From Escherichia phage vB_EcoM_KAW1E185: 64,000 bases of DNA. The notes beneath the pieces were generated by a model. It searched no databases and was not told the DNA's origin. It was given only the letters and a program-made list of their open reading frames with translations. The stretch is from the sequence record NC_054922.1. One strand, 5' to 3'. Position numbers and translations under genes: made by a program. This document shows positions 1-5,761 of this stretch, piece by piece; the stretch's first letter is position 1, and every line of letters starts with the position of its first letter.

Positions 1-446
1 TGGGTATATTTCTTTTCATCAAAAATCTTTTGTTGTCTGCGTAAACGCCATGGCATTTCAATGAACGTGTACCATATCCCAGATAGTATTGCTGCTGTAA
101 AAATATTAACAAGTATGGTTAAAATAATCCAATCTCCCGTTCTGTCTACTGGACTTTCTCCAAAGAAGCAAAATACAAATGATGTCACAGGAAAACTAAT
201 AATGTACCACAGAATCATAATTTTATCTGTGAACCAATCAGCGTTCGTTAATTTAGCGCGACCATTATGAATACACACGAATTTATCATCTGTTGCAGTA
301 GATGGCTTAGCTGCTTGATATCCCATTCTAAACTCCCTAATCAACAAATTTTTCATATCTTCGGAACAACCATTCCAGTCAACTCTATCAACTGAAATGC
401 CATCATCCCCATCATCTAAATCATACCAGCGAGTTTTTAAAATCAT
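1..446 (-). CDS. hypothetical membrane protein, N-terminal part only (ORF runs off the left edge)
   Basis: Hand translation of the minus strand from ATG 446..444 is open to position 1; hydrophobic stretch present; start overlaps the stop of the upstream ORF in an ATGA junction. Confidence 0.45.
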   Translation of the reverse strand, partial: MILKTRWYDLDDGDDGISVDRVDWNGCSEDMKNLLIREFRMGYQAAKPSTATDDKFVCIHNGRAKLTNADWFTDKIMILWYIISFPVTSFVFCFFGESPVDRTGDWIILTILVNIFTAAILSGIWYTFIEMPWRLRRQQKIFDEKKYT

Positions 447-805
447 TTAATTTTCCTACAATCACTCACAAACTCTTCCATTGATTCTTTTTCAATATAA
501 GACATGTAGCTATTATATTCCTTTAATTGTATTTTGTAATCCTTTTTTCTTTGCCAATTTATTTTAAAATTATCATAATGAAAATATAACATTGTACCAA
601 AGAATGAAAATAATGAAATAATTTTAGTATAGTGAAGTTCACTCCAAACTTCTATTATATTTACTGTGCCGTCAATGTTTAAAATAAGACAGTCAATTAA
701 CAATCCAAAAAGACTACCCGCAAGAGCTGCAGCCAACGCCACAGCAAAAATTAAAAATGACTCAGGAAGCGAATATTTGACTTTATTTAGTTTTGGCTTT
801 TGCAT
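443..805 (-). CDS. small membrane protein, 120 aa
   Basis: ORF track; hydrophobic segment near N-terminus, charged C-terminal tail; ATGA coupling to next gene. Confidence 0.5.
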   Translation of the reverse strand: MQKPKLNKVKYSLPESFLIFAVALAAALAGSLFGLLIDCLILNIDGTVNIIEVWSELHYTKIISLFSFFGTMLYFHYDNFKINWQRKKDYKIQLKEYNSYMSYIEKESMEEFVSDCRKIK

Positions 806-1200
806 CGTGATTCCTTAACAAATTTCATAATTTCATCAAATTCATACGCAGCAAGTTTAAGCTGATGTTCCTTTTTAATCTTTTTACACTGTGCTTTCCA
901 ATCACGTACGCGTTTACGATAATGCCTTCCTTGATACCAGTATCCTACCCAATTTACAGGTATTAATAAAAATGGAACTATCATTGGAAGAATTAATGTT
1001 GACGCAAATATTATATTAGATTCAATATCAGTCATAACATCTATAACTATTCCAACCCCCAGTAGAATTACAAATGATACAGCTATTACAGGACCTATTA
1101 ATACATCAGTAGAAATTATCTGACGCTTTAATTCATACTTCAACGGTTTACTTGGAAGGTATAGTGATGGTTTTGACATATTCTCTACATTCCTTAACAA
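787..1200 (-). CDS. small membrane protein, 137 aa (start may be the internal Met at 1179)
   Basis: ORF track; two hydrophobic segments; C-terminal tail resembles that of the 443..805 product. Confidence 0.45.
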   Translation of the reverse strand: MLRNVENMSKPSLYLPSKPLKYELKRQIISTDVLIGPVIAVSFVILLGVGIVIDVMTDIESNIIFASTLILPMIVPFLLIPVNWVGYWYQGRHYRKRVRDWKAQCKKIKKEHQLKLAAYEFDEIMKFVKESRCKSQN

Positions 1201-1756
1201 ATTTTTCTAATAATAAATCGCTTTCAAAATTGGGATTTTCTACGAATTTATCAAAAAGATCATCAACAATAGTTAAGATATTCTTTTTACTAAGAATACG
1301 TTTATTTTCATGCTTCGTTTCAGAATCAACTATAAGAGTAAAGAAATATTTCTTGCCCTGAAATTTTACAGTAGTATCAATATAGAATAAATTTGACTTT
1401 TGTAAATTACGTTTAAACCATGCATCACTTAAACTATAAACGCCAAGATAATCATAATCGTCGTTTAAATAACATACTGTCCATTCAGGAGAAATGAAAT
1501 CAGTAAATTCAACATCAAAATCGCATGTTAATAAATGAATTGATTCAATACTGTTAATAAGTATTCCAGGACGTATTAAAGACTTTTTACCTCTAGAAAA
1601 TCTTCCAGAAAGGCTTTCATCAGTTTCATATGAAGAACCCCAATAATAATTACGTCCTTCTGCCATACGTTTAAGAGCATTTAATAATTGGTCTGGAACA
1701 TCAACTTGTCTTTGGAATTCTTCAAACATTGAATTGAAATCACTTTGCATTCTCAT
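1148..1756 (-). CDS. hypothetical protein, 202 aa
   Basis: ORF track; no motif recognised. Confidence 0.55.
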   Translation of the reverse strand: MRMQSDFNSMFEEFQRQVDVPDQLLNALKRMAEGRNYYWGSSYETDESLSGRFSRGKKSLIRPGILINSIESIHLLTCDFDVEFTDFISPEWTVCYLNDDYDYLGVYSLSDAWFKRNLQKSNLFYIDTTVKFQGKKYFFTLIVDSETKHENKRILSKKNILTIVDDLFDKFVENPNFESDLLLEKFVKECREYVKTITIPSK

Positions 1757-3147: not shown

Positions 3148-3178
3148 CCAAAAAGCCCCAACCGAAAGGTTGGGGCTA
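3148..3178 (-). terminator. intrinsic terminator (10-bp GC stem, GAAA loop, U-tract); copy 1 of a duplicated 36-bp element
   Basis: Plus strand reads ataccaaaaagccccaaccgaaaggttggggctaag at 3145..3180; sits just downstream of the stop of the 3185..3658 gene. Confidence 0.6.
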
Positions 3179-3184
3179 AGAATG

Positions 3185-3658
3185 TTATTTGATTTGTTTA
3201 GCAGACCAAATGCGGTCTTTGATAATTTTTTGGATGTCTTCAACATATTCAAGAGAGTGAACATGTGGGTTATCTTTGAAACTATAAGCACGAGCTAGCT
3301 TTTGGCCTTCAGTTTTGATTACTAAAAGCTCTTTAAGGATAGCTTCATATTTGGAGATAATTCCTTTAACGATATTTTTCTCTTGTGTGACTTTAGGATC
3401 TGCTTTAGGAGCAGGTTTACCCGAAGCCTTTGCAAAAGCAGCGCCAGTAGCAACTAAACTTTTCCAGGCCATACTAACTGCATTCCCTGTAAATCCTTCG
3501 GCTTTCATATCACGAGCAAATTGGAATCGTGATTCATCGGAAGCATCTTTATAGGAATATTTACCCGCGGCAATGGCTGCTTTTGCGACAGCTTGAATTT
3601 CGGTGCTAGATGCTTCATTTAACACCGCTTCATTTAAAAATTGAGCATATGATTTCAT
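3185..3658 (-). CDS. internal-protein-like protein with N-terminal capsid-targeting leader (MKSYAQFLNE), 157 aa
   Basis: ORF-track ORF trimmed to the ATG at 3658 (AGGAAA Shine-Dalgarno upstream); leader resembles T4 internal-protein leaders ending in a gp21 L/I-x-E cleavage site; late promoter upstream. Confidence 0.6.
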   Translation of the reverse strand: MKSYAQFLNEAVLNEASSTEIQAVAKAAIAAGKYSYKDASDESRFQFARDMKAEGFTGNAVSMAWKSLVATGAAFAKASGKPAPKADPKVTQEKNIVKGIISKYEAILKELLVIKTEGQKLARAYSFKDNPHVHSLEYVEDIQKIIKDRIWSAKQIK

Positions 3659-3696
3659 CTTATTTCCTGTTTTAATTTGTAGATTTAATATACTAA

Positions 3697-3704
3697 TATT
3701 TATA
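3697..3704 (-). promoter_or_regulatory. late promoter TATAAATA upstream of the 3185..3658 gene
   Basis: Plus strand reads tatttata, i.e. TATAAATA on the minus strand, about 39 nt upstream of the ATG. Confidence 0.5.
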
Positions 3705-3732
3705 CCAAAAAGCCCCAACCTTTCGGTCGGGG
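3705..3732 (-). terminator. intrinsic terminator; copy 2 of the duplicated 36-bp element (loop inverted to TTTC)
   Basis: Plus strand reads ataccaaaaagccccaacctttcggtcggggctaag at 3702..3737; ends the tRNA/stable-RNA transcription unit. Confidence 0.6.
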
Positions 3733-3740
3733 CTAAGCCT

Positions 3741-4043
3741 TGCGGCAACCTTGTCGGGGTTCCACCTGCTAAGGCAAGTGTTTGTACGAAACGCCGGGAT
3801 TCGAACCCGGTTATTAAGTAGTTGACGCTACTCAATATTTTTAAAAGGCCATATCTCGACCATATCCGAACGTTCCGTCAAAAACGCTACTCGGCTTACG
3901 GCAAAGATATTTCCTCGAATCGATAATTCGGTGCGCCGTTTCTGCTGTGATGTAAGAGGGCATCAATAAACGCAAAGATTATTAACGCAATTCCTTACTC
4001 AGGGAACATCAGTCCGACGACTTACCGGTAGCGACCCGGTTTC
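3741..4043 (-). ncRNA. putative stable small RNA(s), comparable to T4 species 1/2 RNAs downstream of tRNA-Arg
   Basis: No ORF; T-arm-like CCGGGTTCGAATCCCGG; an 8-bp long-range pairing (ACGGAACG with CGTTTCGT) could form an acceptor-like stem; boundaries approximate. Confidence 0.35.
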
Positions 4044-4492: not shown

Positions 4493-4568
4493 TGGGGTGA
4501 CCGATGGGAGTCGAACCCATGACTACGAGAATCACAATCTCGAGTTCTACCAACTGAACTACGGCCAC
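4493..4568 (-). tRNA. tRNA-His (anticodon GUG)
   Basis: Anticodon arm CGAGA-TTGTGAT-TCTCG, T-arm ATGGG-TTCGACT-CCCAT, discriminator C, encoded CCA. Confidence 0.8.
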
Positions 4569-5110: not shown

Positions 5111-5761
5111 TTATATATTGTTAATTTGATTTAGAATTCTTTTTGCTTGAGTATGACTTACGCCAATATGCTTAGCATATTTAGACAATTCGCCACGTTT
5201 AGAAAAATCATATAATTTAGAAATTTCTATTCTTCTTTTTCTTTCATCCGCAGAAACTTTTGCTTCGTTTGCTTTTGCTATTTTACGTTTAGCTTCTTGA
5301 GAATGAGTTTTACCAGCAAAGCCATTCTTCATTAATCCATTTGAAGACCATCCTTTTAATTTTCCGTTAGAATGTGCCTTTTTAACACCCAATGAAATTA
5401 ATTCGCGTTGCTGATCTGTCATAGGATAATTATTTATATGGTCCCATCCACCTTCACCTCCAAGTTTTAAATTATACACATCTGGTCTATTTAAAAACTC
5501 TTCTGTGACAATATTTTTCTCGGCTTCAAGCATAGATTCTTTATCGTCAAAATACTCTAATATTTCTTTAGAAAAATTTTCTATACCATATTTATCTTGG
5601 GCTCTTTTTAATAATTTACCAGAACCCATATATCCATCATCTAAATTTTCGGTAGAATGCACACCAATATAAATTTTATTATTAATTTTATTTGTTATTT
5701 TATAAAGATAAAAATGCATATCAGTCCCTAATAAAGAACTGAGCGTCTCACGACGAGTCAT
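5111..5761 (-). mobile_element. segB: GIY-YIG homing endonuclease (SegB-like) wedged between tRNA-Gly and tRNA-Ser
   Basis: N-terminal GIY-YIG module YLYKITNKINNKIYIGVHS plus basic C-terminal region; lies inside the tRNA array as T4 segB does; true start may be the internal Met at 5719. Confidence 0.8.

Follow-up and report, generated by a model that had tools for sequence, protein, structure and literature searches.

A shared C-terminal tail in the predicted membrane proteins e.2, e.3 and e.4 of a T4-like phage, and signs of turnover at their gene junctions

We analyzed a stretch of 64,000 nucleotides of Escherichia phage vB_EcoM_KAW1E185 (NC_054922.1; the window, hereafter), whose first 1,200 nucleotides hold three overlapping open reading frames (ORFs) for small, putative membrane proteins. 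Over its first 3 kb, the window shares 96-97% identity with Tequatrovirus genomes, among them AV122, RB3 and RB14, and, judged by sequence, the source phage is a T4-like member of Tequatrovirus. Every gene in this region is carried by the minus strand, on which the ORFs 1..446 (partial), 443..805 and 787..1200, listed in an earlier sequence-only reading of the window, do exist. The gene order in the relatives is e.8, an unnamed ORF (e.7 in T4), e.6, e.5, e.4, e.3, e.2, nudE (e.1) and e (lysozyme), and the tRNA cluster of the phage lies upstream of the e genes. The trio sits between e.5 and nudE/e, on the same strand and in the same order as in RB3, RB14 and T4. Each protein matches the PHROG family of e.2, e.3 or e.4, with 84-100% protein identity to the T4 versions and 96-100% to database members. 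Position and sequence together identify the three ORFs as orthologues of T4 e.2, e.3 and e.4. The genes and their parts are the following (window coordinates; aa, amino acids; TM, transmembrane).

1..446, minus strand: e.2, with 148 of 162 codons in the window and the last 14 beyond its edge; 96% identity to P0144; PHROG 2203 (E = 1e-78); named e.2 in RB3, RB14 and T4
e.2 parts, minus strand: predicted cytoplasmic N-terminal domain, aa 1-75; predicted TM segments, 159-221 and 57-131; tail motif FITECRKLK just beyond the window
443..805, minus strand: e.3, 120 aa; 96% identity to T4-group e.3; PHROG 2330 (E = 2e-60)
e.3 parts, minus strand: N-terminal tail; predicted TM1, 677-757; acidic loop; predicted TM2, 578-625; basic tail; FVSDCR, 455-472, followed by KIK and the stop
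787..1179, minus strand: e.4, 130 aa, ATG start at 1179, N-terminus MSKPSLYLPSKP; 100% identity to P0046; PF26873; PHROG 2604 (E = 1e-69)
e.4 parts, minus strand: N-terminal tail of net charge +3; predicted TM1, 1045-1101; acidic loop; predicted TM2, 952-1014; W/R/K-rich tail of net charge +9; FVKESR, 805-822
1148..1756, minus strand: e.5, soluble protein of 202 aa; tail motif FVKECR, 1184-1201; its last 11 codons overlap the start of e.4

Full-length e.2 has 162 aa in RB3. The third ORF had been extended to 1200, where a TTG provides the first in-frame start, a mechanical call. The frame stands but the start does not: we place it at the ATG at 1179, because relatives annotate it there and the N-terminus MSKPSLYLPSKP is conserved across genera, being recognisable in RB69, in VR25 and in a Klebsiella T4-like phage. 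Neighboring genes overlap by 4 nucleotides at e.3/e.2 (a shared ATGA, 443-446), by 19 at e.4/e.3 (787-805) and by 32 at e.5/e.4 (1148-1179).

The genes themselves are already known and annotated, so that the shared tail and the junction-based turnover described below are modest additions rather than a discovery. In T4 records, e.2, e.3 and e.4 each carry the label "conserved hypothetical, predicted membrane protein". They appear as msp7, msp6 and msp5 in an older T4 entry and as Y06M, Y06N and Y06O in UniProt, and UniRef lists each of them under the name 'Transmembrane region domain-containing protein'. Precomputed Pfam families cover e.2, e.4 and e.5 (Phage_T4_Y06M, Y06O and Y06P), and the precomputed assignments of the database members are PF26896 and PF26873 (Phage_T4_Y06O). 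Some copies of e.3 and e.4 (P0002, P0005, P0048, P0064 and others; locus L019) bear the NCBI name 'sulfurtransferase', which looks like a propagated mis-annotation since no NCBIfam or Pfam model supports it. The neighboring e.6 is called 'host specificity protein' in several records.

Kyte-Doolittle profiles of the three proteins contain two hydrophobic segments of TM length each (e.2, aa 76-96 and 106-130; e.3, aa 17-43 and 61-76; e.4, aa 27-45 and 56-76), and no such segments appear in the controls e.5 and e.6. With the 4- and 19-nucleotide overlaps, this bears out the earlier description of an overlapping array of small membrane proteins. The second segment of e.3 is the weakest in this phage, and the RB69 and VR25 orthologues are hydrophobic there too. 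A W/R/K-rich stretch adjoins the membrane segment in each of the three proteins. Net charge is +3 in the N-terminal tail of e.3 and e.4, -3 in the loop and +2 to +9 in the C-terminal tail, a distribution that fits an N-in/C-in orientation. Hydropathy and charge suggest that e.2, e.3 and e.4 each cross the inner membrane twice, as a hairpin of two helices that leaves both termini in the cytoplasm and a short acidic loop in the periplasm. These loops, 8-17 residues long, are the least conserved part of each protein. The AlphaFold2 (AF2) model of e.2, built from an 18-sequence alignment, reached a predicted local distance difference test (pLDDT) score of 51, with low-confidence helices at 69-95 and 103-161, and that of e.5, built from the single sequence, a score of 41; both are too poor for a fold search. 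The N-terminal domain of e.2 (222-446, minus strand), unmodelled by AF2, carries an acidic motif, W-x-[DN]-[LM]-D-[DG]-G-D-[DE]-G-I...V-D-W-x-G-C, which is conserved in three genera (including the RB69 and VR25 orthologues) and resembles a DxDxDG-type calcium-binding loop.

The three proteins and the soluble e.5 share a tail motif, F-[IV]-x-[ED]-[CS]-R, which lies within their last 3-11 residues: e.5 ends in FVKECREY..., e.4 in FVKESRCKSQN, e.3 in FVSDCRKIK and e.2 in FITECRKLK. The basic/aromatic W/R/K-rich tail and the 'EFV...R-K' segment pointed out in the sequence-only reading are real, and the motif is more widespread than claimed, being found in four genes. We scanned the window together with the rest of the RB3 genome, which amounts to nearly a whole genome, and among approximately 2430 stop-to-stop segments in six frames only e.2, e.3, e.4 and e.5 have the motif near the C-terminus. 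The signature is conserved across genera. RB69 (Mosigvirus) has it in e.2, e.3, e.4 and e.5 and also in ORF133c (NLENFIKECRGK), an additional protein with two TM segments; VR25 (Gaprivervirus) has it in gp145, gp144, gp143 and gp132; and the Klebsiella phage Roth04 in five cluster genes, one of which lies between nudE and the lysozyme gene and encodes a soluble protein. The proteins that occupy the e.5 slot in VR25 and Roth04 resemble T4 e.5 solely in a 15-residue tail. The motif residues survive codon changes, with the arginine encoded as AGA, AGG, CGA or CGT. A separate run of small acidic soluble ORFs lies between e.3 and e.2 in RB69 (L008 2857-3652) and VR25 (L009 3191-4441); their common C-terminus, ...GxWVSSS(x)xC, looks like the signature of a second tandem family.

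The three genes had been taken for a tandemly duplicated family, and how far this holds depends on the part of the protein and on the depth of the comparison. Direct BLASTP between e.2, e.3 and e.4 is weak (E from 0.001 to 0.45), and PHROGs and Pfam keep them in separate families. Profiles built from close relatives return hhalign probabilities of 1-7% and no global homology, finding two short pieces: the N-terminus of e.3 and e.4, which in both reads M-x-K-P-x-L...KY, and the last 13 residues of e.3 and e.2. Such profiles are nearly uninformative, because the database homologues are all at least 66% identical (effective number of sequences, Neff, approximately 1.3). We then built cross-genus profiles, which add the orthologues of RB69, VR25 and Roth04, and in which the outlying RB69 ORF133c and Roth04 x1 and x2 were assigned to groups by eye. 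With these, the three groups are collinear, with hhalign probabilities of 80-86% in global and 77-90% in local mode, compared to 0.3-6% for reversed-sequence controls. The local alignments span 44 (e.4/e.3), 26 (e.4/e.2) and 16 (e.3/e.2) columns of the cytoplasmic tail, and the same comparison detects no sequence similarity between the TM helices. By profile comparison, e.2, e.3 and e.4 share a homologous C-terminal module, which by its motif extends to the soluble e.5 and to further cluster genes of Mosigvirus, Gaprivervirus and Klebsiella T4-like phages. The idea of a duplicated family is thus supported in part, by the tails. Paralogy of the whole genes is likely on the same alignments, with no similarity detected between the hairpins, and the array most likely grew by tandem duplication.

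The motif coincides with the translation initiation region of the following gene, as seen in three junction elements.

810..825, minus strand: junction repeat AAATTTGTTAAGGAAT, copy 1; codes for KFVKE in e.4 and includes the Shine-Dalgarno sequence of e.3, AAGGA
1189..1204, minus strand: junction repeat AAATTTGTTAAGGAAT, copy 2; codes for KFVKE in e.5 and precedes the start of e.4
443..460, minus strand: e.3/e.2 junction TGTAGGAAAATTAAATGA; codes for C-R-K-I-K-stop and supplies e.2 with its Shine-Dalgarno sequence (AGGA) and its ATG

Within the codons of the motif lies the Shine-Dalgarno sequence for the gene that follows (AAGGA, GAGGA or AGGAA). Most junctions finish with AAATGA, a stop combined with the next start, and the e.2/nudE junction of the relatives is built like that of e.3/e.2. 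The two copies of the exact 16-mer AAATTTGTTAAGGAAT, at the e.5/e.4 and e.4/e.3 junctions, are 379 bp apart. Since the 64-kb window holds 13 pairs of exact 16-mer repeats, the repeat alone is unremarkable; what deserves attention is the matching position and frame at adjacent junctions. The 16-mer may also resemble the binding consensus of RegA, a resemblance on which we base no claim. Genome-wide, the motif is found in 2 of 36 ATGA-coupled junctions, namely e.3/e.2 and e.2/nudE, and it is therefore no by-product of coupling. We detected no significant RNA structure at the junctions, where folding energies compared with shuffled sequences gave z between -1.0 and +1.0. Promoters annotated upstream (in T4 record L13089, solely in front of e.8, e.7 and e.6), T4 expression data, and a Shine-Dalgarno sequence within the last codons of each upstream gene lead us to infer that e.5-e.4-e.3-e.2-nudE is an early, translationally coupled operon.

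To describe selection along the genes, we measured the ratio of nonsynonymous (dN) to synonymous (dS) divergence by the Nei-Gojobori method in 11-17 Tequatrovirus loci. dS is approximately 0.15-0.2 along all four genes. The cytoplasmic tails are under purifying selection, with dN/dS of 0.08-0.17, compared to 0.82 (e.4), 0.38 (e.3) and 0.46 (e.2) in TM1-loop-TM2. The alignments display the same trend, with near-invariant ends and variable hairpins, including a 4-residue loop indel in e.3 and, in some e.4 alleles (P0132-type), the replacement of the whole TM1/loop block. In the last 20 codons of e.4 (787-846, minus strand) dS is 0 among 16 Tequatrovirus genomes, compared to approximately 0.2 in the rest of the gene. 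This lack of synonymous change suggests an added constraint at the nucleotide level, which would reach approximately 40 nucleotides upstream of the e.3 start. The need for a Shine-Dalgarno sequence does not fully explain the motif, because codon changes leave F, I/V, C and R in place, the other 34 ATGA-coupled junctions lack it, and dS is normal over most of the tails.

The array varies in composition between phages. That of T4 is like the one described here in protein identity, in the order e.6-e.5-e.4-e.3-e.2-nudE-e, in its overlaps and in its membrane-protein annotation, and is unlike it in e.2, which in T4 ends after TM1 at 102 aa; RB3, RB14 and the lineage of our window have the 162-aa form (148 codons of it in the window). 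In Manna, VEc74 and Pu-Krd-SF7, e.2 is precisely missing: e.3 joins nudE exactly at the e.3/e.2 junction, finishing with an e.2-type junction TGCAGGAAATTAAAATGA that is followed by nudE. The e.4 gene of Manna is frameshifted. UFV05-type genomes (5 contigs) replace e.4, e.3 and e.2 with an in-frame chimera, e.4(1-31)::e.2(87-162), and one e.4 variant in the database has lost the hairpin in frame. Overall, recombination at the repeated tail/initiation junction most likely continues to add units to the array and to remove them. This recalls the PeSL-type mobile cassettes of T4-type hyperplastic regions, which Arbiol, Comeau and Krisch are said to have described in 2010 and in which short repeated boundaries reportedly flank small accessory ORFs. 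As in those cassettes, a repeated boundary coincides with gene gain, loss and fusion at e.2-e.5; there, however, the boundary is a promoter with a stem-loop, whereas here it is a coding tail with a Shine-Dalgarno sequence and a start codon, and has no significant hairpin.

In terms of distribution, phage records with at least 60% identity number 497 for e.4, 497 for e.3 and 446 for e.2. A family profile run against 1.84 billion representative proteins returned 8 matches, all of them Tequatrovirus e.2, e.3 or e.4 or fragments and chimeras of these, and scans of IMG/VR gave 5 loci only. With tblastn, the reach extends to Mosigvirus, Gaprivervirus and Klebsiella T4-like phages. Judged from these searches, the family is narrow in range.

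In published T4 data (PMC9697503, supplements 4 and 6), the transcripts of e.2-e.5 are early and each of the four proteins is detected; those of e.4 and e.5 belong to the early class, that of e.2 to the middle class and that of e.3 to the late class. In the CRISPRi-ART screen of T4, e.2-e.6 are scored 'Not Fit', which means that their knock-down had no effect on fitness in laboratory E. coli (PMC11879866, supplement 15). Our literature search for the function of e.2-e.6 returned mentions in expression tables and CRISPRi-ART scores and nothing else, and the main text of the HIDEN-SEQ preprint on T4 transposon sequencing does not mention these genes (bioRxiv 10.1101/2025.11.20.689424). Scans with Pfam, NCBIfam and PADLOC gave nothing above cut-off, and a PDB sequence search with e.2 and e.5 returned no meaningful matches. 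Two sub-threshold candidates were discarded, the NCBIfam Bfi1 immunity-protein match of e.4 (18 bits against a cut-off of 100) and a weak SA1362 match of e.2; we regard both as noise from TM composition, because the divergent e.3/e.4-type orthologues that we scanned gave neither. The functions proposed in the sequence-only reading, namely superinfection exclusion, lysis timing and the blocking of membrane-bound defence, found no support. BLASTP linked the three proteins to none of Imm, Sp, rI, rIII, Ac and the spanins that the same genome encodes (best E of 1.6-4 against RB3 Imm and Sp), no holin family was matched in Pfam or PHROGs and no anti-defence or defence family in PADLOC, and the loop is short and the least conserved part.

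Taken together, these data lead to the following reading, which as a whole stands about an even chance of being right: e.2-e.4 are orthologues of the T4 genes, form membrane hairpins, share a homologous tail and have an accessory role driven by that tail. Tentatively, the hairpin would serve mainly as a membrane anchor, and the conserved cytoplasmic tails might carry the activity, possibly together with e.5. Early in infection, on the inner side of the membrane, the tails may contact a partner common to all of them, or else one another and e.5. The role could then be one of accessory host interaction, dispensable on laboratory E. coli and possibly host-specific. Several points weigh against this reading. 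Whole-protein paralogy finds no support in the TM parts, and the profile grouping of ORF133c and of Roth04 x1 and x2 is arbitrary. The hairpin topology is derived from hydropathy and charge only, and the AF2 models are poor. In the e.4 lineages, V, I or S takes the place of the motif cysteine, and an amphipathic tail helix finds no support, the hydrophobic moment being no higher than in shuffled sequences in 6 of 7 tails. Tail conservation acts partly at the nucleotide level, where the last 20 codons of e.4 overlap the initiation region of e.3. dN is close to dS in the windows e.4 aa 31-60 and e.2 aa 91-100, and the fast evolution of the hairpin could, instead of marking a passive anchor, stem from diversifying selection on an interaction in the membrane or periplasm; on the sequence data, it fits either. 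Any function of e.2-e.4 is proposed with low confidence, as neither experiment nor homology points to one. A bolder extension, which we consider quite unlikely, sees in the tail a portable FIKECR element with two uses. As a peptide, it would dock hairpins and soluble proteins on one partner, the latter being e.5, its non-homologous slot-mates in VR25 and Roth04, and Roth04 x5; as DNA, it would be both initiation region and recombination joint, at which whole gene cassettes would be added, removed or fused in frame, so that every new cassette would automatically be coupled and tagged.

Different explanations give the weight to other parts of the proteins or to the DNA. If the variable hairpin and loop were the working surface, the proteins would act in the membrane or periplasm, by superinfection exclusion or by blocking a membrane-acting defence or competitor. 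The high dN/dS and the indels in TM1-loop-TM2, including the replaced block of P0132-type e.4, would fit an arms race, and the genes are accessory, variable in copy number and expressed early, like imm and sp. T4 offers a precedent in the membrane-associated RIIA/RIIB, which according to the text of the HIDEN-SEQ preprint counter RexAB (bioRxiv 10.1101/2025.11.20.689424). Imm and Sp are also small and non-essential, and Imm is a membrane protein and Sp periplasmic. However, they lie at different loci, they have no sequence similarity to e.2-e.4 (best E > 1), and they act at or beyond the membrane, whereas the strongly conserved parts of e.2-e.4 are the putatively cytoplasmic tails and the loops measure only 8-17 residues. 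No similarity links e.2-e.4 to rI, rIII or Ac either, or to families of known function in PADLOC, Pfam and PHROGs, and mere upkeep of hydrophobicity also yields high dN/dS in TM helices. In two result sections of the same preprint, in their text as distinct from the data tables, the T4 genes presented as conditionally essential against the tested defences do not include e.2-e.4. We therefore rate this explanation as unlikely. A holin-like or lysis-modulating role, as class II-like holins or antiholins tied to the nearby endolysin gene e, is very improbable. The proteins match the class II outline in size, predicted two-TM N-in/C-in topology and charged C-terminal tail, the genes lie two genes upstream of e, and e.3 is classed as 'late' in T4 omics tables, as is lysozyme. 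In contrast with that role, their transcripts and the e.4 protein are early, no holin family in Pfam or PHROGs matches them, and they appear dispensable, with a knock-down that leaves fitness unaffected and an e.2 that many phages have lost. T4 already has the holin t and the rI/rIII lysis-inhibition system, and rI and rIII are annotated elsewhere in RB3.

The remaining explanation denies the family altogether: the three would be unrelated membrane proteins whose shared ends converged through coupling, or represent a nucleic-acid element such as the boundary of a recombination or regulatory cassette. In its favor, 16 of the 18 listed junctions have K-E, E-E or R-K codons of the motif that double as the Shine-Dalgarno sequence for the following gene, dS falls to 0 at the 3' end of e.4, the identical 16-mer recurs at two junctions, deletions and fusions end at tail junctions, and close-relative profiles show no global homology. 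Nevertheless, a Shine-Dalgarno sequence does not require F, I/V, C or R, which are kept through synonymous and cross-family codon changes, and 34 other ATGA-coupled junctions lack the motif. Upstream of the junction, the similarity moreover continues for 16-44 columns and enters the stretch that adjoins the membrane; dS is normal over most of the tails, and the junctions lack significant RNA structure. We accordingly hold convergence or a purely nucleic-acid element to be quite doubtful, and retain the reading of homologous tails on membrane hairpins.

The genes e.2-e.5 are part of the large 'dark matter' of conserved T4 early genes, whose proteins every infection produces. Here they offer handles for experiment: one cytoplasmic tail motif over four adjacent genes, a fast-evolving hairpin, and an array that expands and contracts at a repeated coding junction.

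Further observations concern the surroundings of the array. In the tRNA cluster, a 216-aa ORF (5111-5761, minus strand) has a GIY-YIG-like N-terminus, YLYKITNKINNKIYIGVHS, and resembles a Seg-type homing endonuclease. It lies between tRNA-Ser and tRNA-Gly, where RB3 and RB14 have tRNA-Pro, a gene that was not found in the window. A tRNA-His (GTG; 4493-4568, minus strand) lies between tRNA-Arg and tRNA-Asn, a position at which the RB3 and RB14 clusters have none annotated. In Roth04, a 30-aa ORF by the tRNA genes (L013 1518-1610) is annotated as 'anti-CBASS protein acb1', probably an annotation artefact, because 30 aa are far too short for Acb1. Finally, a G+C-rich, terminator-like hairpin (AGCCCCAACC...GGTTGGGGCT, then a T run) occurs twice in near-identical form, at 3154-3177 and 3711-3734 (minus strand); the copies lie approximately 557 bp apart and have a 19-mer in common. 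Most of the ORF 3185-3835 falls between them, and their appearance is that of repeated cassette boundaries.

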